IMG/VR virus record: IMGVR_UViG_2551306637_000004
Location: 14,592 to 78,591 of that record
DNA length: 64,000 nucleotides
Source: a virus
Lineage: Duplodnaviria; Caudoviricetes
Direction: 5' to 3' (one strand)
The notes below the pieces were generated by a model, which saw nothing but the letters and a program-made list of their open reading frames with translations, did not search any database and was not told the origin of the DNA. Shown here piece after piece: positions 3,623 through 64,000 of this stretch; positions within the stretch are counted from its first letter, which is position 1; each line of letters starts with the position of its first letter. The position numbers were made by a program, and so were the translations under genes.

Positions 3623-6600
3623 TTACATTTGACCCAGTGCGACTTGCTTGATCAGTTTCTTCGTAGAGCCACCCGTGACGATGTCGTTGCTGATCGCGGC
3701 GACGACGTCATTCGGACCCATCTGCGGCTTTTGATCCGGAGCAACGACCCACACGTTGACGTGTTGTGGCTGCTTCTCGCGTTCGGGCTTCGGTGCCGGT
3801 GTGCTCTTCGAGATGACACGGTTGCCGTGTGCGTTGAGGTTGTCGAGGAAGTCGGTGCCGACCGTCGACACGGCTCCATCGTTTAGCACATACTCTCCCT
3901 CTTTCAAAAGAGCATGTACGGAGTCACGACCGGGCATCCCGCCCGTCACGCTCCCGCCCGACACGAAGCGCTTCACCCCCGCCGAGCGGGAGACGAGACC
4001 GTTGCTGACGGAGCCACCCTGGACCGCGAGCGCGGTGCCGGTGGATGGCATATCAAAGCCGCCCGTGGCCGCGGGTGCAGCGGAAGCAGACGCAGCCGTC
4101 CCGAACATGCTGAGGACGCCCTTGATAAGCATGAGCGCGGCCTGCTGTTCGAGGATCTGCAAGACCATCTTCAGGAACGACACGCCGAAATCCCTTACTG
4201 CCTGACCAGCGGTCTTCGAATGGGTGGTCAGGTCATCGAAGAACTGGATCAACGCGTTGTCGGTCCCGTTCAGCATGTTGGCATACCCGTCGATCGCCAT
4301 CGAGGTCGCGTTGTGCGTGTCGAGGAAGTTCTTGTTTGCCTCGTTGATCCCCTGCATCAGCGAGAACGAACCAGTGGTAGTCTTCGCGGCCAGCTTCTCT
4401 TGCAGACGCTCCTGACTCTCAACCAATGCGTTTGACTTATCTTGCAGCGCGTTTAGTTCACCCTGCTGCGCAGTGCGTTCCGTGGTGAGGCGTACGATCG
4501 TGGCTTCGAGGCGTGCCTGTTCTTCCCGTTTCGCAGGATCAGCCTTCGCCGCCGCGAGTTGCGCGTACAGCCCAGTCGCGGGTGATCCAGCGCCATCACC
4601 TTCCTCGCCAAGCATCGCCGTACGGGCGTTGACTTGTTTCCGCAGTTGCTCGATTTCGCCGCGAAGCTGGGTGATGTTCGCCTGATACGTGACGAGGTTG
4701 CGCGTGTCGACGACGTCCTGATCAGCAGCTGCCTTGAGGCTTAGCGACTGACGTTGGACTTGGCTGAACTGGGCTGAGTAGCGCGGATCGCTCATGTACG
4801 CCGACGCTGCCTGATCGGCGACCACGGGGTACGAGTTACGTTTCAGCTCGATCGCCTGATTGCTCGACCGCGTCTTCTCGTCGCCCTTGAGCGTGGTCAT
4901 GAAGGCGTTGAACGCCATTCGTGCCCGGTCCTCGTCCTCCTTGAACTGCGCTGCCTTGATCTGCTCGTTGAGCTTGCGAACGCGCTCGGTGTTCTTGTCG
5001 ATCTGAGAGCGGACCTTTGCGTCCATCTCGGCCTGCAACGACTGAAGCTGCTGCTTCACGTCGTCTGCGTAGTCGCGATGATCGCCGACCTGAAGTGTCG
5101 GGCTCGTCCCCTTCAGCGTGTCGATCGCACGGTTGTACTGGTTCTTGATCAGTTCGACGGCGACGTCGCCGAGCTGCCGTGCCTTCTCCGGGTCACGGGT
5201 GATACCAGCCTGGGTGTCGACTTCGGCCAGCTGCGCTTGAAGAGCGCGTTGCGCGGCCGAGTTTGTCGCCTTCAGCGACGGCGCAGCCTCGACGCGCGCG
5301 TTTTCGATCTTGCGTTGAATGTCGTTCTGCGCAACCTTCAGCCGGTCGATCTGAGCGCGCAGGAACGTCTTCTGGATTTCGTCGTCGGACGCATCCAGCT
5401 GGGTCTGAAGCTGACGCATGAGCTGGCTGTTGGCCGCGCCTTGGTTTGCCAGATCCGGATTGTTCAGGAGGCTCTGGTAGCGACCGAATGCGCCAGCGCC
5501 GCTGCCGATGCGCTGCACGTAGTTGCGCGTCTCGGGCTTGAGCGCGTTGACGAACTCGGTCTCGGTCACGCCGGTCGGATTGCGGAAGTCCATCGAGCGA
5601 CCATCCGCGCTCGTAGTGGCCAGCAGCTTGTCGACGTAGCCGGGACCGCCGTTGTAGGCCGCGAGCGCGAGCGTCGAGTTGTTGCCGTACTTCTTCAGCT
5701 GCGCGTTGAGGTACGCGCGGCCGATCGCCTCGTTGTACGCGGCGTCGTCCCGGTAGCGCTTGTCGTCCCACGGCAGGCCGGCCAACCGCGCAGCTTCTGG
5801 CGCGGTGTCGGGCATCACCTGCGCGATGCCGATTGCACCCTTGCTCGATGTGATCGGACGCCCGTTGGCGTCGAACTGCCGGTTGCCGCTCTCCTGCGTC
5901 TTCAGGGCAGTCCAGAGCGCGTCCAGGCGCGATTCCGGGGAGCCGAGGGCGCCCCTCGTACGCGTTACCGCTACGGTGACCGCGTTGACGATCTCCTGCG
6001 CGGCCGGGTTGGAGTTGGCGTAACGCTGGTTCGCGAGCGATGTGTTCGCGCGGTCCAGATCGTGCTGATAACCCTGTGCCGTTTGCAGCCCGTTCGTAAC
6101 CTTCTGGAGATTCGTCAGGAGATTGGACAGTGCCTGTTCTTCGGCGTATGAGTTTGCCTTTTCGGCGTCCGAGATCCCCGGCGTGGTCCGCGCCTGAATT
6201 GCCTTCGCGATTGCTGCGTTCACGGCCGTTGCGAAGGCCGATTGGGCGTCCAGGTCGCGCGGCTGGCCGTTGATACCGGCAGCGTCCACCAGGCCCGCCT
6301 GGACCTTGCCAGACACGTCCGCGCCGGCATCCTTCAGGTACTGGATGATTGCCGGGATTGTGTCCTTGTTCACCCCCTCGTCGATCGGCAGATATCCGGC
6401 CGACCGCCTTCCTCCCGGCAGGGCATTGAAGCGGCTCGGCTCATACCCGGACAATGCGGACTCGTCCATGACGCCGACGCCGGGGGTGCTCATTCCCGGC
6501 GCGCGCTCAAGCTTGTCGCGCGGCCCGGAGAATGCCCCTTTTTGGAAATCACCGGCAGCTTGGCCAGCGGCTTCTTTCGCGCGCTCAACCATGACGTCGA

Positions 6601-50830: not shown

Positions 50831-51057
50831 AGTCGAAGCTCACGCTCCAGGATCTGACGCGTGAGCAGCGCAACGACCTGCGGAAGATGTGTATTCCGCG
50901 GGTCGTGCTGGACCTCTTGCAGCTGATCCAAGAAAAAGACCACGAACTGGCCACCCTGAAGAACACCACCACGAAGGACCAATCATGTACCGCTTTAACC
51001 GACTCATGGCCGAGTGCCGTGCAACCACATCTCGCATCGAGAAGACGGAAGCTCTGA
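50827..51057 (+). CDS. Hypothetical protein
   Basis: GTGA coupling; overlaps the ligase start. Confidence 0.5.
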   Translation: MKSKLTLQDLTREQRNDLRKMCIPRVVLDLLQLIQEKDHELATLKNTTTKDQSCTALTDSWPSAVQPHLASRRRKL

Positions 51058-52274
51058 CGAAGCTCGGCGCGAACGAAGATGAATTCGCGAAGACGATGCT
51101 GGTCGCTGCGCTGTCGCCATTTGTGACCTATGGCGTGAAGAACTTCGACATGCCGACTGGCTTCGCGGTGGAGAACGTTGACGCTGGCGTGATGTTCCTC
51201 CAACTGCTGGACGACCTTGCGGTGCGCAACTACACCGGGAAAGCCGCGCAGTCGGCAATCGCGAACGTGCTGTCGCACTACACGCACGAGACCGCCGAGA
51301 ATATGTCGTGCGTGCTCCGCAAGGAACTGCGCATCGGCATCGGTGCGACCGAGATCAACAAGGTCTTCCCGGACCTGATCCCGGTCTTCGACGTGATGCT
51401 GGCTGAGAAGTGGGAACCGGGCGTCACCGATATCATGTACCCGGCGCAGGCCGAGTTCAAGATGGACGGCCAGCGCGACACGGTCTTCGTCATCCCCGGC
51501 CAGCCGTGCGAGCACTACTCGCGCGAAGGCCTGCGCCAACCGTGGATCGAGGGCCTGTTCGACGACGAGATGCAGGCGATTCGCCAGCGCCTCTGCGGCG
51601 ACGAGGCGATGGTGCTCGACGGCGAGGCGATGGCCCACGTCGTCGATCCGACGAAGAAGCATCCCTCCTGGACGGCCACGATGAACTGCAAGAAGGAGGG
51701 GGCTGACCGCTCGAAACTTCGCTACTACGCCTACGACTGGATGCCTATGTCGGAGTGGGTGAAGCGTCAGTGTTCGCGTCAGCAGGATCTTCGAAGCTTG
51801 ATGCTCGACGCGGCAATCAGCGATCTGGCGCTCAGCAAGATCTACCCGTCATACAAGGAAACGGTCTCGGATCGTGCCCAGGTCAACGCTATGTTCGATC
51901 AGGCACTCTCGCTCGGTTATGAAGGCCTGATCGTCAAGGACCCGAGCGCATTGTACGAGTGGGACCGCTCGACGTCCTGGCTGAAGGCGAAGCCGCTGCA
52001 TACGGCCACGCTGCGAATCGTCGGCGTCTATGAGGGAAAGAAGAAGGGAAGGAACGAGGGTCGCCTCGGGGGCTTCCAGCTCGAAGGAACGATTGAGGAT
52101 GGCACCGAGATCAAGACCGATTGCGGCGGTGGGTTCACGGATGATCAGCGTGAACTCTTCTTCAAACATCCGGAGATGGTTGTGGGCCGGATGGCTGAAG
52201 TCGAGTACATGGAAGTAACGAAGAAGAACGCGTTGCGTAACCCGGTATTTCTGCGGTTTCCGGACGGTAACTAG
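50985..52274 (+). CDS. ATP-dependent DNA ligase
   Basis: EFKMDGQR (KxDG), LDGE, YAYD, EGLIVK, WLKAK, OB-fold; AAGGA RBS before ATG 50985. Confidence 0.95.
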   Translation: MYRFNRLMAECRATTSRIEKTEALTKLGANEDEFAKTMLVAALSPFVTYGVKNFDMPTGFAVENVDAGVMFLQLLDDLAVRNYTGKAAQSAIANVLSHYTHETAENMSCVLRKELRIGIGATEINKVFPDLIPVFDVMLAEKWEPGVTDIMYPAQAEFKMDGQRDTVFVIPGQPCEHYSREGLRQPWIEGLFDDEMQAIRQRLCGDEAMVLDGEAMAHVVDPTKKHPSWTATMNCKKEGADRSKLRYYAYDWMPMSEWVKRQCSRQQDLRSLMLDAAISDLALSKIYPSYKETVSDRAQVNAMFDQALSLGYEGLIVKDPSALYEWDRSTSWLKAKPLHTATLRIVGVYEGKKKGRNEGRLGGFQLEGTIEDGTEIKTDCGGGFTDDQRELFFKHPEMVVGRMAEVEYMEVTKKNALRNPVFLRFPDGN

Positions 52275-52351
52275 CATATAGTCGCCGAACTTCTTCGGTG
52301 GTTATCTCCATATAATGCTTAGCACACCACCACCACATCAGTAAAAGAAAA

Positions 52352-52759
52352 ATGAGCATTGCATGGAAAGACGCGGAGAGCGAGTTCGAGTCGTTCTTCG
52401 CGCCCTTCGGCAAGCGCGCGCATGTGCAGCGCTTGACCGACACCGCCTACGTTCGCGGTTCGACAGGGCGGGCCGCATCGTTCAAAGATGCGCAACCGTC
52501 TGACTACATCATCACTCTTGAAGGGACCACGTTCTACGCTGAGGTCAAGAGCACTCAGAGCGAGCCGTCGTTTCCCTTCAGCATGATCAAGAAGAGCCAG
52601 TGGGCAGCAGCCCGAATGGTCACCGCAGCTGGCGGACATTACCGCTTCTACATTCGCCGCGAGACGACGAAGCGCTGGTACGTCGTCCCGGCAGTTGTAT
52701 TCATCACCCATACAGCCAAATCGATCCGCTGGCACGAGATCGATGGCTACCTCATCTAA
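52352..52759 (+). CDS. PD-(D/E)xK Holliday junction resolvase-like nuclease
   Basis: PSDYII...FYAEVKST. Confidence 0.75.
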   Translation: MSIAWKDAESEFESFFAPFGKRAHVQRLTDTAYVRGSTGRAASFKDAQPSDYIITLEGTTFYAEVKSTQSEPSFPFSMIKKSQWAAARMVTAAGGHYRFYIRRETTKRWYVVPAVVFITHTAKSIRWHEIDGYLI

Positions 52760-52772
52760 CAAGGATCAAAAC

Positions 52773-53375
52773 ATGACCAAGTATCTCGACGTGATGGTCG
52801 ACCTGGAAACGACTGGCACTCAGCCTGAGCGCACGGCAATCATCGAAATCGCGGCGGTTCGCTTCGATTTCGCATCGGGCGAGATCATGCCCGAGATGTT
52901 CAACCGCTGCCTGATGATTCCGCATGGTCGCTTCTTCGACGAAGAGACCCGCAACTGGTGGCTCAAGGACAAGCGCGAGATCCTGCAAGGCATCTACGCG
53001 CGGATGGAGCGCCCGGAGGTTGTGATGCAGGCGTTCCGCGATTTCCTGCTGCGTGACGTCGACACGTACAACGAGAAGCTGCGTTTGTGGGCGAAGCCGT
53101 CGCACTTCGAATATCCCTTCCTCGAAAGCTATTTCAAGGAATTCGAGATTGGCAATCCGTTCCACTACCGCGACACGAACGACATGAACTCGTGGATTCG
53201 CGGGCGCTACTGGCCGCAGCAACCGCCCGAGTTCGAACGAAACATCCCGTTCGAAGGCGACGCCCACAGCGCGCTGTTCGACGTGCTCCACCAGCTCAAG
53301 GTCCTCTACGCAGTGCGTGACCACTCCACGAAGCACCCCAGCCTCGCAGCAGCCGGCGACGTCGTCGAAGCATAA
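52773..53375 (+). CDS. DEDDh 3'-5' exonuclease
   Basis: VMVDLETTG...HSALFD; AAGGATCAAAACATG leader. Confidence 0.88.
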   Translation: MTKYLDVMVDLETTGTQPERTAIIEIAAVRFDFASGEIMPEMFNRCLMIPHGRFFDEETRNWWLKDKREILQGIYARMERPEVVMQAFRDFLLRDVDTYNEKLRLWAKPSHFEYPFLESYFKEFEIGNPFHYRDTNDMNSWIRGRYWPQQPPEFERNIPFEGDAHSALFDVLHQLKVLYAVRDHSTKHPSLAAAGDVVEA

Positions 53376-53443
53376 GCGGTAGCGCAACCGAGAGAGCAGC
53401 GCGCTACGGCGCGCTGTACCACCACTTCACTAGGTTGTGAATC

Positions 53444-54448
53444 ATGAAAATCGAAACTATCGCCGGCCTCCGGGTCGGCTTTCTTGGCGACCCCCATCTC
53501 GGTCGTGCTTTCCTGACCGGTGTCCCTCTTGATCGTCGCGGCGAGCGCGAGCGAACGCAGATGCACGAATTCGTCGAGTCGTTGTTCGCGGACGTCGACG
53601 TGAACATCTGCCTCGGCGACATCTTCGACACGTTCGTTGTTCCTCCCGAGATCGTCCTGGCCGTCGCGTCGTCGTACCGCGAAGCAGCGCGCGCTCGACC
53701 CAACACGTGGTTCATCCTCACGCGTGGCAACCATGATGCTTCGCGCGACGCCGACAAGCGCAGCTCGTTCGACCTGTTGTACCAGCTGCTCGACGGCATC
53801 GAGAACATCGTCATCGCGAAGGACGACGTCCAGGTCGTCGAACACGGCATCTTCCGTCTCGGCGTCGTGCCCTGGCACCCCTTCATCAACTCGAAGGAAA
53901 TGGCGCGCAAGCTGGTCGAAGACGGCTACAAGGAGTTCGATCTGATCGTCGGCCACTGGGATCGCGTCACGTTTGAGGACAACCCGCACAATGCGATCCC
54001 GATGCTTGAGCTGCGCCCACTGACGAAGCTGGTCGCCAGCGGCCACGATCACCACCCGTACGACGAAGTGATCAACGGCGTGCGCGTCGTGTTCCCCGGC
54101 TCAATGCAACCGTACGCACACGGCGAAAACGACGAAGACGGGCGCTACGTCACGCTCACGCTGGAAGAGCTGCGCGCAGTCGTCGCTAGCACGCCGGCCC
54201 AGTTCCACGACGTGGCCGTGCGTGTGCTGCTCAAACCGGGCGAGCAGATCGATTTCCCGGTTGACGCGTGGGCACTGACGACAAAGCCGATTGCCGACAA
54301 CGGCGAGGAGTACGTCGACATCACCATGCAGACCGAGTCGTTTGACATGGTCGACATCCTGTCGCGCTGCCTGACAAAGCACAACGTCACCGCCGAGACT
54401 TCAAACGAAGTGCTCGCCATGTATCAAGAACGCCGTAACGCTGCTTGA
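53444..54448 (+). CDS. sbcD: Mre11/SbcD-like metallophosphoesterase nuclease
   Basis: GDPHLG, GDIFD, GNHD, GHW, SGHDH; adjacent to an SbcC gene. Confidence 0.88.
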   Translation: MKIETIAGLRVGFLGDPHLGRAFLTGVPLDRRGERERTQMHEFVESLFADVDVNICLGDIFDTFVVPPEIVLAVASSYREAARARPNTWFILTRGNHDASRDADKRSSFDLLYQLLDGIENIVIAKDDVQVVEHGIFRLGVVPWHPFINSKEMARKLVEDGYKEFDLIVGHWDRVTFEDNPHNAIPMLELRPLTKLVASGHDHHPYDEVINGVRVVFPGSMQPYAHGENDEDGRYVTLTLEELRAVVASTPAQFHDVAVRVLLKPGEQIDFPVDAWALTTKPIADNGEEYVDITMQTESFDMVDILSRCLTKHNVTAETSNEVLAMYQERRNAA

Positions 54449-54458
54449 GGAAAGCATC

Positions 54459-56471
54459 ATGCTGCTGAACCTGAATATCAAGAACGGCTACCGTCACCCG
54501 AACTCGACGTTCGTGTTTCCGATCGGCCAAACGGCGATCACGGGACCGAACGAGTCGGGCAAGAGCGTCACGCTGGAGATGATTTTGTTCGCGCTGTGGG
54601 GCAGCGTCGCGCTGCGCGGCGCAGCCGACGACTACAAGAAGCTCGAAGTGACGCTCGAATTCCTCGTGCGTGACCAGACCTATCGCATCGTCCGCACGAC
54701 GAAGAACGCGAAGCTGACGCGCGCTGGTGAAGACGTCGCGACGGGCACGAAGCCGGTCAACGCGAAGATTCGCGAGCTGTTCGGCTACGACTACGACGTG
54801 TTCACGATGGCGAACGCCGTGCTGCAAGGCCAGATCGAGAAGCTGTCGGACGCGAAGCCGACCGAGCGCCGCAAGATCGTCGACCAGACGATTGGCCTGA
54901 ACGTGCTTGACGACATCGTGACCGATCTCGGCAAGCAAGCGCTCGCGTTCCGCAATCAGGCTGACGGCATCGCCGCGGTGCTGCGCGAGCCGGTCAAGCC
55001 CGAGCAGCCGGTCGACTTCGAGTCGAGCACGACGCTCGGCCAGAAGCGCGACAACGTCGCGACCCTGGTCAACGAGCTGAACCAGCTGCGCGGTATGGTG
55101 GCCCACAAGCCGTCCGAGCCGGTCGCCCCCACGTGCGCCATCGGCGAGACCGTCGAGACGCTACAGAGCCTGATTGCGGCCCGTAACGAGCTGGTTGCGG
55201 CGAAGGGCACGCTGGAGAGCGCAGCGGCTGATCAGCGGGCTACCCTGAAGCGTCTGAGCGACGGACTCAAGGCAGTGACCAGGGACGGCACCGTGGCCCG
55301 TCTGGAGGCTGACATCGGCCGCATCGAGAAGCAGATCGCCGGCCTGGCAGAGCCGGTGCTGACGATCGACCAGATCGAAGCGCTGGAGCAGCAGCACATC
55401 GATCACGACATGTGGGTGCAGAAGCAGAAGCTGTTGGGGCAGGGCGAGCACATCTGCCCGAGCTGCGACCACCACTGGCCGATCGCGTCAGCCGCGCTGG
55501 CGCCGTACGCAGCGGTGGTCGATACTGCCGCGCCGTCGATGACGCGCGTCGAGCTGAACGCCCAGCGCGCGCTGCACGGCAACACCGAGCGCCGCGCCGC
55601 GCTCGCCCAGGAGATCGTCGAGTTGCGCGAGCGCATCGAGCGCACGAAGCAGGAAACGCAGGCTGCGATGGACGCCCAAAAGGCGAAGATCGTCAAGGCC
55701 GAACAGGAGGTCGCCGAGACTTCCGAAGCGGTCTTGACCCTTCAGAACGCGATTGACAATACGCCCGATCGCAGTGATGACCTGAAGGAGCGTCAGGCGT
55801 ACGAAGGTCAGCTCGTCGCGCACCATGCGCAGGTGCTCAGCTACAACGAGTTCTTCGCGAAGCTGGCCGAGCGCGAGGCGCGCGTCGAGGAGCTGGCCGG
55901 CGTCGAGGCCGAGCTGGGCAAGCTGGACGAGCAACTGGTCGCTGCGCGCGCCTACGAGCAGGCCGTGGGCGCGTACGAGGCGCAGATGGCCACGTACAGC
56001 GTCGACAAGGCGAAGCTCGACGCGTTGAATGCCGCTGCCGATGACAAGGCCGCGGCGAAGGCGGCGGTAGCGGAAGCGAAGCTCGTGATCAAGTCGCATC
56101 TCGTGCCGTCGCTCAACAAGGTAGCGTCCGTGCTGCTCAACCAGATGACCGGTGGCGCACGTACGTCGATCGTGGTGGATGAAGACTTCAACATCACGGT
56201 CGACGGCCAAGCAGTGCAAACGCTGTCCGGTTCCGGAAAGGCTGTCGCGAATCTCGCACTCCGGATTGGTCTCGGTCAGGTGCTGACCAATGGTGTGTTC
56301 TCCGTCTTCATGGCCGACGAGTTCGACGAGTCGATGGACGCACAACGTGCTCAGTACACCGCCGAGTGTCTGCAACGTCTGAAGGAGACCATCAAGCAGG
56401 TGATCATTGTTACGCACAAGCGCCCGATCGCAGACCACATCTTCACTCTCCCTTTGAAAGAGGCCGCATGA
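54459..56471 (+). CDS. sbcC: Rad50/SbcC SMC-like ATPase
   Basis: Walker A GPNESGKS, coiled coils, CPSC zinc hook, LSGSG signature, Walker B ADEFDESMD. Confidence 0.93.
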   Translation: MLLNLNIKNGYRHPNSTFVFPIGQTAITGPNESGKSVTLEMILFALWGSVALRGAADDYKKLEVTLEFLVRDQTYRIVRTTKNAKLTRAGEDVATGTKPVNAKIRELFGYDYDVFTMANAVLQGQIEKLSDAKPTERRKIVDQTIGLNVLDDIVTDLGKQALAFRNQADGIAAVLREPVKPEQPVDFESSTTLGQKRDNVATLVNELNQLRGMVAHKPSEPVAPTCAIGETVETLQSLIAARNELVAAKGTLESAAADQRATLKRLSDGLKAVTRDGTVARLEADIGRIEKQIAGLAEPVLTIDQIEALEQQHIDHDMWVQKQKLLGQGEHICPSCDHHWPIASAALAPYAAVVDTAAPSMTRVELNAQRALHGNTERRAALAQEIVELRERIERTKQETQAAMDAQKAKIVKAEQEVAETSEAVLTLQNAIDNTPDRSDDLKERQAYEGQLVAHHAQVLSYNEFFAKLAEREARVEELAGVEAELGKLDEQLVAARAYEQAVGAYEAQMATYSVDKAKLDALNAAADDKAAAKAAVAEAKLVIKSHLVPSLNKVASVLLNQMTGGARTSIVVDEDFNITVDGQAVQTLSGSGKAVANLALRIGLGQVLTNGVFSVFMADEFDESMDAQRAQYTAECLQRLKETIKQVIIVTHKRPIADHIFTLPLKEAA

Positions 56472-56478
56472 GGAATTA

Positions 56479-56826
56479 ATGGAGTCCATCAAAACGCTAC
56501 TTGATCAAAACTTCACCCCCGAGCTTATCGCCACGTTCCTTGACACCACCCTGGAACGTGTCGTCGAAGAGATGAACAAAATGGAACTCTTCGGCTGGGG
56601 AAACCCTGGAAATTACGCCTTCATCATTGCGCGCAAGTACCCTGCAGAACGCCGCTGGAATGAAAGGTTTGAACGGATTCTGGCAAGCGCACGTGAGAAG
56701 CACGACAAAGGGCTGATCACGATGGTTCAGGTTCGAGATGACGACATGATCATCCAATACGCGATGCCTGTCGAACGTCCTGTTCCGCGCCGACTCTGGT
56801 TTACCGCACCACCCGAGACTTACTAA
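56479..56826 (+). CDS. Hypothetical protein
   Basis: GAGGA RBS. Confidence 0.7.
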   Translation: MESIKTLLDQNFTPELIATFLDTTLERVVEEMNKMELFGWGNPGNYAFIIARKYPAERRWNERFERILASAREKHDKGLITMVQVRDDDMIIQYAMPVERPVPRRLWFTAPPETY

Positions 56827-56827
56827 A

Positions 56828-57406
56828 ATGAACTTCGAACAATACAAACCTCTGGCCCTTCGCACCGAGAAGCCCCTGGCAACTTCTCTGCTGCGCCTGC
56901 AACACGCATCGCTCGGTCTCACGACCGAACACGGTGAGTTCACGACCGAAGTCAAACGCCTTTGGGCGTACCAGAAGCCGCTCACGCAGGAGATGCGCGA
57001 ACACATCTTCGAAGAGCTGGGTGACATCCTCTGGTACGTGGCCATCGGTGCCGACGCCCTCGACTTCGAGATTCCCGAATACCAGCATCTCTTCGACTTC
57101 GACCTCAGCGCGCTACCGCTCGCGGAACAGCTCCAGATCGTCGCGAATCGCATCTCGGTCGAGATCGGCTTCTTCACGTACGAAGTGCCGCTGCATCAAG
57201 ACGCGCGCGCCCGCACGGGTGCGATGCGCAGCCTCGTGAACATCCTCAGCGGCGTGGCCCATGCTTGCGATGCGCTCGATATGCCTCTCGAAGAAGTCAT
57301 GTCCGCGAACATCGCGAAGCTGAAGCAGCGCTTCCCGGATGCCTACACGAATGCCGCCGCTGAAGCGCGCGCGGACAAGGGCGGTCTGGACGCTCGCAAC
57401 TCGTAA
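56828..57406 (+). CDS. mazG: MazG-like nucleotide pyrophosphohydrolase
   Basis: EHGEFTTEVKR...EELGDILWY...NIAKLKQRFP. Confidence 0.85.
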   Translation: MNFEQYKPLALRTEKPLATSLLRLQHASLGLTTEHGEFTTEVKRLWAYQKPLTQEMREHIFEELGDILWYVAIGADALDFEIPEYQHLFDFDLSALPLAEQLQIVANRISVEIGFFTYEVPLHQDARARTGAMRSLVNILSGVAHACDALDMPLEEVMSANIAKLKQRFPDAYTNAAAEARADKGGLDARNS

Positions 57407-57453
57407 ACCACCACACGTAGGAAGGGCCGACCACCACCGGCCCTGAAGACAAG

Positions 57454-58371
57454 ATGAAACCTATCATTCTGGCCAAGGTGATCGAAGACTCGATCGCCTC
57501 GAACGGCGTGCGCCTCACGACCGTTGAAGTGCGGTATCCGCGCATCATCCATAGCGAGCTGATGACGCACCGCAAGTTCTCCCGCAACGCGGGCAGCTCC
57601 CGCGCTATCCCTATCCATCGCATGTTGCGCCAAGTCTGGTCGCGGCCGGCGTGCCCCGCGGAGTGGGGCACCAACCAGCCGGGTATGCAGGCAGGAGCGG
57701 AGCTTCAAGGTTGGCGTCTGTGGGCCGCGAAGGCCATGTGGCGCAGCGCTGCGCGCTTCGCCGCGCTGCATAGCTGGCTGCTCATGAAGCTCGGCGCGCA
57801 CAAGCAAATCGCCAACCGCGTCACCGAGCCGTACCAGTACATCAACGTCCTGCTTTCCTCGACCGACTGGGGCAACTTCGACGAGCTGCGCTGCCATCCG
57901 GACGCCGACCCGACGATGCAGATCCTGGCCGTCGAGATCATGACCGCGATCGAGGTCAGCGTGCCCCGCCGGTTGCGCATCGCCGAATGGCACTTGCCGT
58001 ACGTCATCCAGTCCGAGCGCGAAGCGCTGCCGATCGAAGAGCAGATCAAGCTTTCCGTCGCGCGCTGCGCGCGGATCTCCTACGACCCGTTCGACGGCGA
58101 CGCGAGCCACGCGAAGGAGTTCGAGCGCTACGCGAAGCTGGTCGGCGCGCGCCCGATCCACGCATCTCCGACCGAGCACCAAGCGACGCCGGCTTTCTCG
58201 TCGACGCAGAAGGGCGGCAACTTCGACGGTTGGCTTCAGCACCGCCAGGACGTCGAGAAGGCCCGCGCGATGGATGGTGAAGTCCCGGTCATCCTGCGCC
58301 GGCAATGGACCAACGACGAGGTCCGATTGCATCGCGCTCTGGTCGCGCAGCGCGGGGAGGTCGAGGCATGA
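57454..58371 (+). CDS. thyX: Flavin-dependent thymidylate synthase
   Basis: ELMTHRKFSRNAGSSRAI, HKQIANR, HASPTEH. Confidence 0.88.
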   Translation: MKPIILAKVIEDSIASNGVRLTTVEVRYPRIIHSELMTHRKFSRNAGSSRAIPIHRMLRQVWSRPACPAEWGTNQPGMQAGAELQGWRLWAAKAMWRSAARFAALHSWLLMKLGAHKQIANRVTEPYQYINVLLSSTDWGNFDELRCHPDADPTMQILAVEIMTAIEVSVPRRLRIAEWHLPYVIQSEREALPIEEQIKLSVARCARISYDPFDGDASHAKEFERYAKLVGARPIHASPTEHQATPAFSSTQKGGNFDGWLQHRQDVEKARAMDGEVPVILRRQWTNDEVRLHRALVAQRGEVEA

Positions 58372-59355: not shown

Positions 59356-60012
59356 ATGTGCACGAACTACCGCGCGCCAGGCGAGGACCCAGGGATCAGT
59401 GAGCTGAAGATCGGGATCGGAGACCTGTACAGGCGCGATCCTTGGGACTTCGAGGTGTATCCAGACTACAGCGCCCCGATGGCCTACGCCGCTGAGGACG
59501 GTCTAGATGTCGTTAAAGCCGTGTTCGGCTTCTGGCCGAAGTTCATGCAGCCCGAGCGGCGAGACGAGAACGGCAGGAAGAAGCGGCCTCTGGACACCAT
59601 GAATGCGCGCACAGAGACGGTCGGCACGTCGCGCCTGTACAGCAAGGCATGGCGAGACGGGCAGCGGTGCCTAATTCCCGCACAATGGATCTATGAGCCT
59701 TGCTACGAGACCGGTAAGAACGTGTGGCATCGCATTGGCCTGACGGATTGGCAACCATACTGCGTCGCAGGTATCTGGCGGCGCTATGAGGACGCCGATG
59801 GTCGAACATTGATCGGCATGTCCATGCTCACCGTCAATGCTGACGACCATCCAGTCATGTCCCGTATGCACAAGCCGAACGACGAGAAGCGGTCGGTCGT
59901 GATCCTTCGACCTTCCGATTATGACGAGTGGTTGCACACGAAGAATGTCGAGTCCGCGCGCTCGATGTTGCAGTTGTACCCGGCTGACGAGCTGGCAGAC
60001 GGTCCGAAGTGA
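59356..60012 (+). CDS. SOS response-associated peptidase (SRAP/YedK-HMCES family)
   Basis: MC start (catalytic Cys2), NARTET, RCLIPA..IYEP, HPVMSRMHK..DEKRSVVIL. Confidence 0.92.
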   Translation: MCTNYRAPGEDPGISELKIGIGDLYRRDPWDFEVYPDYSAPMAYAAEDGLDVVKAVFGFWPKFMQPERRDENGRKKRPLDTMNARTETVGTSRLYSKAWRDGQRCLIPAQWIYEPCYETGKNVWHRIGLTDWQPYCVAGIWRRYEDADGRTLIGMSMLTVNADDHPVMSRMHKPNDEKRSVVILRPSDYDEWLHTKNVESARSMLQLYPADELADGPK

Positions 60013-60203: not shown

Positions 60204-61106
60204 ATGGAAAAGCAAGGCCGATTTGACTTCGAAATTGAGACGCTTCAAGCGAGTTCGGACGATCGAACGGCACGTATTCGTGCGAAGCCCAGTCCAAGGC
60301 GATACATCGAGGTAGAAATCGATGGTGCTCGGTACTACCGAGATAAATATCTCAACACGCTGATAAGCCTAGAGCAAATGGCTCAGGCAATGGAGGGGTT
60401 GCCGATATATAGCCTTACTCCTTCGATTGATTCAACTCCAACCTATGCCGATAGAAGGATGGCAATCGTTGAGAATCAGCTAAATGGCGGGGAGTACGTG
60501 CCGCCTGAAGAAGTCGCTACACCCCATTCGGACTTTCGGCGCGAGGCGGCGAGTAATATCGCGTTTCTGTCAGTTGATATATGTGGCTCAACTGCGTATC
60601 GCCGCAAAGATGCCCGTGGTTTCGATAGAGCTTATGAGGTATTCATCAGGGAGCTTGGTACTCTTGTGGGTCATTTTCATGGGGCCATCTTAAAAACAAC
60701 TGGAGATGGTTTTATTGCTTATATTGACCACCCATCGTTTACGAGTCAATGCGACAATGCTGTCGATCTCGGATTGTCTTTAATTTCGTTCTCAATACGT
60801 ACACTGAACCCGGCATTGAAGTCGGCCGGTTTGAAGCCGCTATCCATCAGAGTTGGTGCTGACTATGGGGTGGCATCCACTCGTACTATTGAAGTTCCAT
60901 CGACAAATTATCGCAATGTGGAGGTCTCTAGCGACGCGCTAAATAGAGCGGTGAAGATCGAGGAGTCATGCAAGCCAAATCAATTCCGGATTGGCCGCGA
61001 GCTTTACGAACTGGTACATGTACAGTGGCTTGAGCGTGCTGAAGAAGTCCCATTCGATGGAAGTAGTGTTGGGATAGAGGGCTACAAAGTCTATAAAGTT
61101 CGGTAG
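60204..61106 (+). CDS. Class III nucleotide cyclase 1 (PycC-like) with an unassigned N-terminal domain of about 100 aa
   Basis: SVDICGST, KTTGDG, IRVGADYG, LNRAVKIEE. Confidence 0.88.
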   Translation: MEKQGRFDFEIETLQASSDDRTARIRAKPSPRRYIEVEIDGARYYRDKYLNTLISLEQMAQAMEGLPIYSLTPSIDSTPTYADRRMAIVENQLNGGEYVPPEEVATPHSDFRREAASNIAFLSVDICGSTAYRRKDARGFDRAYEVFIRELGTLVGHFHGAILKTTGDGFIAYIDHPSFTSQCDNAVDLGLSLISFSIRTLNPALKSAGLKPLSIRVGADYGVASTRTIEVPSTNYRNVEVSSDALNRAVKIEESCKPNQFRIGRELYELVHVQWLERAEEVPFDGSSVGIEGYKVYKVR

Positions 61107-61191
61107 TGTTTTTCGAGAATGAGTGTATAACTGATGACGGGCTGAGGGGTCGCTCACCTATGTATTGCTGAAAACTTAAGGGGGAAAGAAA

Positions 61192-61950
61192 TTGAACTAC
61201 GATGGTTTGAAGCGGCGGTACTGGGAAGCGAAAGTGCAACGGGTTACTGAACTGCGAGATCGAATTCGCGAGCGCGAAGATGCGCTTGCTGCCGGACGTG
61301 TCGTACCCGATGGGGCTGATTTGGCTTTGGGAAAGGGAAGGCGACTCCCAATGGCGATAATGTTCATAGATATTTGTGGTTTTTCGAGTCGTCCGGCGGA
61401 AACTCACGATGAGCAGCATTTGATGTTGGCTGCGTTGAATTTGTTTTTTACGGAAATGATCCGGATTGCCGAGGACTATGGAGGGACGGTCGAAAAGAAC
61501 ACCGGAGATGGCCTGATGGCCTACTTCGAAGATAACGGCGGAGATCCGCCTGAATGTGGATGCAAGCGTGCCGTTTCATGTGCGCTTACCATGATGGCTG
61601 CACGCGAGCATTTGATTTCGCCGATACTCGATGCAAGCGGGTTTGCGCCTTTCGCATTCAGGGTGTCTATTGATTATGGAAGGGTGACTATTGCCAATCT
61701 GGGGGTTGCAAGGGGGTTTAACTCGTATGCTGCAATTGGCACAACGGCAAACTTTGCTTCCAAAATGCTGAGAAATGCAGGTGAGCAAGAAATCGTTATA
61801 GGGCAATTTGTTCGAGATAAGTTGCCGGTCGATTGGCAGACCCAATACACGCAAGTGCATCCCGAGCCAACAGGTTGGATATATAGGGCAACAGGCTTGC
61901 CTTACCTCCTCTACAAATATACGGGCCGCTGGTCCCGGCTGATGGAGTAG
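61192..61950 (+). CDS. pycC: Class III nucleotide cyclase 2 (PycC-like)
   Basis: GRVVPDGADL leader, FIDICGFS, KNTGDG, FRVSIDYG, ANFASKM; TTG start. Confidence 0.88.
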   Translation: MNYDGLKRRYWEAKVQRVTELRDRIREREDALAAGRVVPDGADLALGKGRRLPMAIMFIDICGFSSRPAETHDEQHLMLAALNLFFTEMIRIAEDYGGTVEKNTGDGLMAYFEDNGGDPPECGCKRAVSCALTMMAAREHLISPILDASGFAPFAFRVSIDYGRVTIANLGVARGFNSYAAIGTTANFASKMLRNAGEQEIVIGQFVRDKLPVDWQTQYTQVHPEPTGWIYRATGLPYLLYKYTGRWSRLME

Positions 61951-61954
61951 CTCT

Positions 61955-62650
61955 ATGAATGATCGGCAAACGCAATCGAAAAGCGCTGAGACGGAAATCT
62001 CGTCCCCACCAGGCATTTCATCGGTGACGATTCTTCCAACACCGCAGCCGGACGTGCCATCCTCAAGTGCAGAAGGAAAGACACAGCCTATAGGCGAAGT
62101 GGCGTCCCCTCCTACTTATAAGTTCGCCCATGAATCGCATGAGTACATGCGTGAATACATCCGAAATGCAGATCAAAAGGCTATCTTCTATTTCTCCATT
62201 TGTTCAACATTGCTCGGATTTGAGCACATCCAGTCTTGGGCTGCGCGATGGACAAAGTGGCCCGCAACATGGTCGATGGTAGATTTTATAAGCTTCGTTG
62301 CTATGGTCGGGCTTGCGCTGGCCGCAGTCTGCTTCCTATTTGCCGTCGTCCCCAGGCTGGGCGGCTCCCCGCGCGGTTTCATATTTTTCAAATCCGTAGC
62401 AAACTATTCAAACGCGGATCAGTACATCTCCGATATTGTGAAGCGCCAAGAATCTGACCTCGCAGCCGAAAAGCTCCGTCACTGCTATGAGCTAGCCAAA
62501 ATCGCTACTTCGAAATACGCAGCGATTGGCGTTGGTCTACGGATTGCGTCAGTCGCAATTTTGTGCTCGCTATTTCTTCTCGTGAGCATTAGTCCAACAC
62601 AGAGCGGCAGTCGGCAGTCGGCGACTGGACAAACGGCTGTTCAGCCTTGA
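61955..62650 (+). CDS. pycTM: Pycsar transmembrane effector (PycTM family)
   Basis: IRNADQKA motif, three hydrophobic segments, LAKIATSKY motif. Confidence 0.85.
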   Translation: MNDRQTQSKSAETEISSPPGISSVTILPTPQPDVPSSSAEGKTQPIGEVASPPTYKFAHESHEYMREYIRNADQKAIFYFSICSTLLGFEHIQSWAARWTKWPATWSMVDFISFVAMVGLALAAVCFLFAVVPRLGGSPRGFIFFKSVANYSNADQYISDIVKRQESDLAAEKLRHCYELAKIATSKYAAIGVGLRIASVAILCSLFLLVSISPTQSGSRQSATGQTAVQP

Positions 62651-62728: not shown

Positions 62729-64000
62729 TCAGGCTACCTTCCTTCTCAGCGGGATGACATTCGATTCATTCCCGCCCTGTGGCTCCGTCCCATCGCAGCA
62801 GTTACTCACGAAAGCTGCCCACAGCGCCATTGCCGCTCGTCTCTCCGGGATCTCCTCCCGCACGTCGTAAATCCCCTCGACACCCTTTACCTTGTGGTTC
62901 AGTGCGATCTCACTGATTTCGCGCGAGACCCCCATGTTTCGCATGTGACCTTTCGCCGTGCTGCGCGTATCGTGCGGCGTGAAGTACCTCATTTCAAGCT
63001 TGCTGCTTTCAAACGCTCGGGATATGGACGCCCAAAGAGTCTTGACGCCCATGTGAGTGTCGCCGAGCTTGCGCCGCTTGCCAGCCCGCGCTGGCAAGAG
63101 CCATTCAGATTCTCCCGACAGGGTCATCAAGTCCTCGATCCACTTCACGACGATTGGAACGAGAGGCACGAGCGCGCCGAATCCTGCTTTGAGGTTTTGA
63201 GGCGGAATCCACCACGTCCCACGCTTGAGATCGAAGTGTTCCTTCCGGGCCTTGACCAGTTCGCTGGTACGAACGCACGTGGCAAGCAGGACCCGGAACA
63301 TGAGCCCGTTGTCGCTACCGATCTTGTCATCGATGTCAGGCAACAAGATCCTCAGCTCATCCTCCGTAAGCATTAGTCGTTGACGAACTGGCGGCGGCTC
63401 GCCAAGCAATGCTCGCAACTTAATGCCGGCAGTGGGGTTGGTCTGGACGACCCGCTTACCAATCGCATGGTCGAACAGGACCGTAACCGTCCCCAGCACT
63501 CGATTACAGACGTTCCAAGATTTTCCGCTGGTCTCAAGCATGTAGATGATGTCGGCCGACGTGACCTTTCGAGCCTCCAGTGAACCGAGGTTCGGCTTCA
63601 CCATATTCTCGATATCCCAGTTCCGGTTGTAGGTCGAACCTTCGGCGAGACTGACCATCGCCTTTTCCTTGTAGTCGTCACATAGCTGGCGGACGGTCAG
63701 CGCGGAGGCAGTACGGGCTTTCTCTGTCTTCTTGTCAGCGGCAGGGTCCTCGCCCTTGTCGATCTCGACTCGGAACGCGCGAGCAGCTTTCCTGGCGGCT
63801 GCAAGCGACATGTCGGGGTAGTTACCGATCGTCAGCTCGCGGCGGCGGTTGCCGCGGCTATAGCGAAGGACCCAGGTTGCGGTTCCTGAGCCGGATAGGG
63901 TGAAGGTCAGGCCGTCGCCATCGGCCTTAGCAACTGGTTCCCCTTTGGCGATCCAATGGCGGATCTGAACATCGTCGAGGGCGTGGTGGAGGCGCGGCAT
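62729..64000 (-). CDS. int: Tyrosine integrase (P4-like, with Arm-DNA-binding domain)
   Basis: DGDGL...W..RY...GNYP..SLA arm domain; catalytic R (CVRTSE), HDTR, LNH, GIY; start lies at the window edge. Confidence 0.95.
   Translation of the reverse strand: MPRLHHALDDVQIRHWIAKGEPVAKADGDGLTFTLSGSGTATWVLRYSRGNRRRELTIGNYPDMSLAAARKAARAFRVEIDKGEDPAADKKTEKARTASALTVRQLCDDYKEKAMVSLAEGSTYNRNWDIENMVKPNLGSLEARKVTSADIIYMLETSGKSWNVCNRVLGTVTVLFDHAIGKRVVQTNPTAGIKLRALLGEPPPVRQRLMLTEDELRILLPDIDDKIGSDNGLMFRVLLATCVRTSELVKARKEHFDLKRGTWWIPPQNLKAGFGALVPLVPIVVKWIEDLMTLSGESEWLLPARAGKRRKLGDTHMGVKTLWASISRAFESSKLEMRYFTPHDTRSTAKGHMRNMGVSREISEIALNHKVKGVEGIYDVREEIPERRAAMALWAAFVSNCCDGTEPQGGNESNVIPLRRKVA

Follow-up and report, generated by a model that had tools for sequence, protein, structure and literature searches.

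A Pycsar-type core with a candidate accessory class III cyclase in a phage cargo slot

Pycsar defence with the membrane effector PycTM was reportedly described by Tal et al. in 2021. Pycsar cyclases are divided into clades A-E, for which structures 7R65, 8JSF, 8JSZ and 6YII are available, and how these enzymes sense phage is an open question (PMC11224242 and its discussion). For this clade, cAMP is so far only a predicted dedicated signal. More than one cyclase is encoded at some Pycsar-1 loci, for which relay or amplification has been raised (10.64898/2026.08.12.744502, section 5; August 2026 preprint). The locus analysed here encodes two cyclases and one PycTM, an arrangement that a first, sequence-only reading took to be possibly undescribed; its novelty is lower than claimed, since multi-cyclase loci are already mentioned in that preprint. 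Literature searches on Pycsar cyclases yielded no tested two-cyclase operon and no account of the family of the first cyclase, which Tal et al. 2021, Burroughs et al. 2015 and the Pucsar supplement may mention.

The window, that is, the whole stretch of 64,000 nucleotides that was analysed, belongs to a virus record 78.6 kb long. The genes of interest and their flanks are as follows.

59356-60012, + strand: SRAP gene (Pfam PF02586), left flank, outside the system
60204-61106, + strand: cyclase 1, putative accessory class III cyclase, 300 aa (Pfam, PADLOC, fold model)
60204-60413, + strand: cyclase 1 N-terminal domain, a possible sensor (family conservation, folds alone)
61192-61950, + strand: cyclase 2, PycC-type, 252 aa (Pfam, PADLOC, profile match)
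61955-62650, + strand: PycTM membrane effector, 231 aa (PF18967, PADLOC PycTM)
62729-64000, - strand: tyrosine integrase (Pfam, PHROG 1), right flank, outside the system

Open reading frames, GC and GC3 all confirmed the initial description of three co-oriented, AT-richer genes lying between SRAP and the integrase. GC content is 48.5, 51.3 and 51.4% for cyclase 1, cyclase 2 and PycTM, compared with 59.0% for the window, and GC3 is 0.46-0.53 for the three genes versus 0.75 for SRAP. Cyclase 2 starts with TTG downstream of a G-rich ribosome-binding site; a search for a sigma-70 promoter consensus found none. Both cyclases passed the Pfam Guanylate_cyc model (E 9e-7 for cyclase 1, 3e-10 for cyclase 2), and PADLOC matched both to PycC (2e-8 and, more strongly, 2e-20) and the third gene to PycTM (2e-26), in keeping with the original gene assignments. 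Recent tandem duplication of the cyclases was ruled out, as the two share only 24% identity and belong to separate families.

Comparison with a sister phage (L123) showed what kind of site the genes occupy. Both flanks are 91-94% identical there (SRAP 93%; integrase 94% at the nucleotide level), the cargo differs, and an unrelated 387-aa gene fills the same slot, indicating that the SRAP-integrase slot holds swappable cargo. The slot gene of the sister phage (L123:6688-7851, - strand; 50% GC) matches nothing in Pfam or PADLOC and is a candidate unknown defence gene. The nearest named copy of the three-gene cassette, in Burkholderia ambifaria, has 85% DNA identity and also lies beside the same integrase; relative to that copy dN/dS is 0.09 for cyclase 1, 0.06 for cyclase 2 and 0.11 for PycTM. 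The phage host is probably Burkholderia. Cyclase 1 found no match among GenBank phages. Elsewhere in the window (positions 50889-58371) the phage encodes an ATP-dependent ligase of its own, thymidylate synthase and a nuclease pair resembling SbcCD; it is of a large type, about 78 kb, that bears an integrase. Family matches, conservation of the triplet (see below) and the swappable cargo slot together support the proposal of a Pycsar-like anti-phage cassette.

The class III motifs predicted for both cyclases were found in place, DICGST/GDG in cyclase 1 (D125, D168) and DICGFS/GDG in cyclase 2 (D60, D106). In each enzyme the catalytic set is intact, comprising the metal-binding aspartates (D125/D168 and D60/D106, respectively), a phosphate-binding arginine (R216 and R157) and the N-x-A-x-K motif (N247/K251 and N187/K191). 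The Lys that stands for the usual Arg in this motif of both cyclases is also present in the solved PycC enzymes 7R65 and 8JSF. Base-pocket positions were assigned by profile alignment and by counting residues from the catalytic Asp. The pocket of cyclase 2, whose profile matches BcPycC 7R65 (6e-14), consists of F58, K102, T104 and A180; most relatives have Val at the last site, in common with the cUMP synthase 7R65, and the set as a whole fits no characterised clade. The pocket of cyclase 1 consists of S123, K164, T166 and E240, with T/K at 166 and E/D at 240 across its family. Neither pocket is that of the characterised pyrimidine clades B (Y50/D94/R97), D (F60/K104/F109) or E (F100/R142/Q144; residues from PMC11224242), and the GTP-specifying Pucsar signature, a Glu four positions ahead of the second Asp with a Lys at the second specificity site, is missing from both (K164/E240 and K102/A180).

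The combination of K164 with D/E240 recurs in 152 of 167 cyclase 1 sequences. These residues align with the adenine-selecting positions of CyaB, E240 with its adenine-selecting Thr, and we read this Lys plus acid as the classical ATP pair, the reverse of the Pucsar Glu/Lys arrangement. From these pocket residues the product of cyclase 1 is predicted to be a cyclic mononucleotide, cAMP being the most likely and cCMP the next. The earlier suggestion that the two cyclases make two different signals fits the differing pockets. In one cyclase 1 subgroup (L094-L096, L111) His, Ser or Gln replaces the acidic pocket residue, and nine other sequences are without Lys164; a shift of product is possible in each case.

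The fold model of cyclase 1 (pLDDT 95) has a beta-rich N-terminal domain (about residues 1-70), a PycC-like helix (78-93) and a catalytic core (about 115-300). Its best fold matches are CyaB (Z 20.5) and the cytidylate cyclase 8JSF, a clade E PycC (Z 19.7); the match with 8JSF covers the longest stretch (213 aligned residues, rmsd 3.4). The N-terminal helix typical of PycC is present in the model, aligning with 8JSF from residue 76. The Panoptes synthase OptS (9MNR) matches much less well (Z 10.7, rmsd 2.2 over 108 aligned residues), the class III fold being far ahead (Z 20). Ahead of the helix, the N-terminal part is five-stranded in the model, gives pLDDT 91 when modelled alone, carries conserved R6-x-D8, P29, R33-Y34, G41 and D47, and is kept in close and distant family members, archaeal ones included. 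It evolves faster than the core (dN/dS 0.44 versus 0.03, in the one pair tested). Neither a fold search against PDB representatives (best Z 2.5) nor searches of viral models (best E 0.07) and the Atlas found a match to it, results that establish neither novelty nor absence. We infer a candidate sensor role for this domain. The idea of a sensor subunit paired with a catalytic one is thus retained in part: cyclase 1 does have a candidate sensor domain, and it looks catalytically intact as well. The invariant Asp residues and the core dN/dS of 0.03 rule out a pseudogene or dead sensor. With its extra conserved N-terminal beta domain and its adenine-type Lys plus Glu/Asp pocket, cyclase 1 is a family of its own. 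Distant members are common in archaea, and in the Atlas they group with proteins of Nitrososphaerota; three distant relatives (P0374, P0375, P0318) are lengthened by additional domains, which are Cys-rich and N-terminal in two of them and C-terminal in the third.

The PycTM gene scored 47.8 bits against Pfam PF18967 (cut-off 27.2; 2e-12). Its product has a low-complexity N-terminal stretch of 50 aa and conserved residues Y64, D73, K75, P133, H176 and K187. Hydropathy identified strong membrane segments at about 108-133 and 188-212 and a weaker helix at about 75-90, so that of the three transmembrane segments first described two are strong and the third is weaker. Likewise, the ADQKA motif is as first described, the C-terminal motif being in fact K182-x4-K187-Y188. 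No diagnostic change in PycTM distinguishes loci with cyclase 1 from those without it.

Neighbourhoods of cyclase 1, like those of cyclase 2 below, were counted in word-seeded searches, which do not represent a random sample. The cyclase 1 - cyclase 2 - PycTM order occurs in 26 of 32 close-relative loci (window included), from Beta-, Gamma- and Alphaproteobacteria, an acidobacterium and viral contigs, so the conserved triplet sought in the neighbourhoods was indeed found. Far from rarely neighbouring Pycsar genes, cyclase 1 has one as its direct neighbour in nearly every case (31/32 close-relative loci, usually within 100 bases), and such Pycsar-neighboured copies span Proteobacteria, Acidobacteria and an archaeal plasmid. 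Partners and gene order vary. An Achromobacter MAG (L001) has both cyclases with an opposite-strand, convergent PycTM (3942-4535, - strand) in place of the co-oriented one; one close-relative locus reads cyclase - PycTM - cyclase 1, with cyclase 1 after the effector; and another reads PycTM - AGS-C PycC - cyclase 1, its PycC being near the cCMP synthase 8JSF (E 3e-35). In L012 a clade B-like PycC near the cUMP synthase 7R65 (E 3e-17) precedes cyclase 1; no effector was found in that assembly, whose contig breaks inside PycC. Cyclase 1 stands with PycTM alone in L010, whose genome has one PycTM and no cyclase 2 orthologue, and a lone copy lies on a short contig (L121). Among the four loci of distant relatives examined, a Haloterrigena plasmid has cyclase 1 pointing away from a pair formed by a cyclase 2-like gene and PycTM, L106 has two distant cyclase-1-type genes with PycTM, and L105 and L107 are lone copies. 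The link between cyclase 1 and Pycsar is therefore strong, with variable partner and gene order. The K/D pocket found beside a clade E-like PycC rules out that the cyclase 1 pocket is matched to its partner's nucleotide.

Several of these loci have further neighbours. The PycTM - AGS-C PycC - cyclase 1 arrangement of L108 (2078-8156) adjoins a SIR2/short Argonaute system, and L109, where cyclase 1 is whole, has this AGS-C PycC called as two pieces. A Burkholderia glumae triplet (L122:6988-7707) lies in a P2/P4-like element beside a ThsB-type TIR gene and an integrase.

Cyclase 1 might simply be a gene with a function of its own, found in the same defence islands as Pycsar and acting via host cAMP receptors or another effector. 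The lone copies L105, L107 and L121 and the loose sequence coupling of cyclase 1 with PycTM would agree with such hitchhiking, which we nevertheless consider very improbable, given that a Pycsar gene is directly adjacent in 31 of the 32 close-relative loci.

To view the association from the other side, we used metagenomic loci of cyclase 2 relatives with 54-86% identity and at least 1 kb on both sides (n=34). PycTM is present in 33 of the 34, cyclase 1 absent from 30. On the cyclase 2 tree the distribution of cyclase 1 requires at least 4 gains or losses, and a tree that groups all cyclase-1-linked cyclase 2s in one clade is rejected (p-AU 1e-6). The catalytic set of cyclase 2 is invariant whether cyclase 1 is present or absent, and its pocket residues do not differ between the two groups either. 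That cyclase 2 and PycTM stand alone elsewhere suggests, on genomic grounds, that the pair could suffice for defence, an outcome which the sequence-only reading had set against a joint system. Nevertheless, cyclase 1 is always present in the window's own 7-member cyclase 2 clade, and among 802 genomes of the Burkholderiaceae and Sphingomonadaceae groups all 5 that have cyclase 2 have an adjacent cyclase 1, 2 of these 5 not having been found previously through cyclase 1. Dependence on both cyclases is therefore possible in some lineages. In 24 triplets PycTM identity tracked that of cyclase 2 (rho 0.73, partial 0.66) and not that of cyclase 1 (rho 0.41, partial 0.07), while cyclase 1 and cyclase 2 retained some co-variation after removal of PycTM (partial 0.33); since the loci are related, these correlations are descriptive only. 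Other arrangements were also seen: a viral contig (L101:2288-4376) encodes a PycC-like cyclase outside the cyclase 1 family, followed by a cyclase 2 relative and PycTM, and in L073 (3714-4124) a non-PycTM gene of about 135 aa, possibly another effector, follows the cyclase 2 orthologue.

These data bear on whether the two cyclases form a heterodimer. The proposal of an obligate pair like mammalian C1/C2 is not supported at family level, as both catalytic sets are full and each cyclase is found without the other. A narrower version, restricted to two-cyclase lineages, holds that cyclase 1 binds cyclase 2, that its N-terminal domain senses or restrains, and that mixed sites make the signal. Class III active sites form at dimer interfaces, and tight adjacency, the fixed order in 26 loci, the 5/5 co-occurrence in two sampled families and the residual co-variation of the cyclases are all consistent with such a partnership. 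However, neither enzyme shows complementary catalytic loss, cyclase 2 is the same whether or not cyclase 1 accompanies it, a sister clade with 63-65% identity (L018, L073) is without cyclase 1, and cyclase 1 also partners clade B-like and E-like PycC enzymes or PycTM alone. Long cyclase fusions sought at 1e-10 were not found, which is weak evidence, and three long matches from the profile search carry other extensions and no cyclase 2; as these long-form searches gave no cyclase 1-cyclase 2 fusion, fusions lend the heterodimer no support. On balance we regard it as unlikely.

Gene content, intact active sites, purifying selection and modular co-occurrence are direct observations, and the reading that we tentatively favour, without placing it above an even chance, is that cyclase 1 is an accessory second sensor and signal cyclase feeding the effector of cyclase 2. 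The prophage-borne cassette would act by abortive infection. Cyclase 2 and PycTM would constitute the core Pycsar pair: on infection a putative cyclase 2 homodimer would make a cyclic mononucleotide, which would open PycTM and so kill or arrest the cell. Cyclase 1 would be a separate, catalytically complete add-on, most likely its own homodimer, responding to a different phage cue, perhaps through its N-terminal domain; the second cyclic nucleotide that it would make may also gate PycTM. The predicted payoff is a wider phage range, or a backup when phage sponges remove the signal.

We favour this accessory role because both enzymes keep their metal, phosphate and transition-state residues; because cyclase 2 and PycTM occur without cyclase 1 in most metagenomic loci (30/34) and cyclase 1 was gained or lost at least 4 times, a single clade being rejected; because PycTM tracks cyclase 2 and not cyclase 1; because cyclase 1 joins other PycC cores in several orders; because L010 and L106 have only cyclase-1-type cyclases beside PycTM; and because the adenine-type pocket (K164 with D/E240) is so widely kept (152/167). 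Precedents of logic may be invoked as well, since several TIR sensors feed one Thoeris effector (PMC13069673) and cUMP-binding sponges exist (10.1101/2025.08.24.671296). The accessory account covers at once the loci with cyclase 1 and PycTM, the variety of partners and gene orders, and the retention of both active sites. Its weak point is that one PycTM would have to read two nucleotides, because the cyclase 1 pocket ignores that of its partner, and this counts against it because known effectors are selective. In many hosts cAMP is a housekeeping signal, and for that reason would be a poor death trigger. The 5/5 co-occurrence, the 7-member clade and the residual partial correlation of 0.33 further weaken the accessory reading, and the two sole-cyclase loci, L010 and L106, could be decay products.

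A different use for the cyclase 1 product is as a guard or decoy: cyclase 1 would constantly make a purine cNMP that either soaks up the broad phage nuclease Apyc1 or, following the logic of Panoptes, holds PycTM shut, so that loss of the cNMP fires the effector. An adenine-type pocket that is fixed whatever the partner, and attachment to three PycC types in any order, would suit such a device; Apyc1 cuts all cNMPs equally (PMC9117128), and a Pycsar guard of this kind has been predicted (PMC12657218). Against this, PycTM is not altered in any diagnostic way where cyclase 1 is present, cyclase 1 is absent beside most PycTMs of this family, the large conserved extra domain suggests regulation over constant output, and the synthase is not the mCpol of Panoptes. 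We consider the guard unlikely, a little more so than the heterodimer. On the most far-reaching reading, itself unlikely, cyclase 1 would be the predicted cAMP-making guard that can be fitted to any Pycsar type, turning anti-Pycsar nucleases and sponges into a trigger or neutralising them. Nearly as far-reaching, it would be the first cyclase dedicated to cAMP signalling against phage, and its N-terminal part a new domain for sensing phage that reveals how cyclases of the Pycsar type are turned on.

The product of cyclase 1 could instead act upstream of cyclase 2. In such a relay or amplifier, cyclase 1 would sense phage and its product would activate or boost cyclase 2, whose product alone would open PycTM. 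This would agree with the tracking of cyclase 2 only by PycTM and with the differing pockets, and the idea was floated in the Pucsar preprint (10.64898/2026.08.12.744502). On the other hand, Pfam finds no cNMP-binding domain in cyclase 2, and loci with cyclase 1 and PycTM (L010, L106) are left unexplained, which makes a relay quite improbable.

The triplet is real, conserved and cheap to test, although it had been glimpsed before, and the first reading is less likely in its most striking form. At 2.4 kb the compact operon permits a direct test of phage sensing and of cAMP signalling; it combines one effector and two cyclases of differing pocket with a defined extra domain to delete or swap, and loci that have just one of the cyclases occur naturally. 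If the accessory reading is true, Pycsar is upgradable by a plug-in module, and detection tools that count the triplet as a two-gene Pycsar miss a part.

The closest known system is Pycsar with PycTM, with which the locus shares a class III cyclase having two metal-binding Asp, N-x-A-x-K and an N-terminal helix, an adjacent PF18967 effector and a mobile defence context. Unlike it, the present locus has three genes and two cyclases, one with an extra N-terminal domain; the triplet thus departs from the two-gene Pycsar architecture, which its cyclase 2-PycTM part alone displays in 30 of 34 relatives. The multi-cyclase Pycsar-1 loci likewise have several cyclases per region and 3TM effectors, and overlap with the present loci is very likely; the preprint gives them one sentence, with neither a test nor a family definition, so the comparison is by description only. 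Pucsar, which uses cGMP, resembles the locus in its Pycsar-related cyclase, TM effector and roomy purine-sized pocket, but its Glu118/Lys195 is reversed in cyclase 1 (Lys164/Glu240) and is Lys102/Ala180 in cyclase 2. Multi-TIR Thoeris and CBASS-DAC (PMC13069673) also have two signal makers, thought to sense different phages, for one effector, though with other enzymes and signals, making this an analogy of logic only. Mammalian C1/C2 and soluble guanylate cyclase likewise pair two diverged class III domains, but their halves have each lost some of the catalytic residues, whereas both cyclases are complete here and each occurs without the other. Panoptes (PMC12657218) similarly sets a nucleotide synthase and TM effector by a signalling defence system; in contrast to its mCpol synthase, cyclic dinucleotide and own effector, the enzyme here is a class III cyclase. 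Taken together, the triplet is predicted to operate as Pycsar does and has a core of the Pycsar type, with pockets that match no characterised clade and a third gene.
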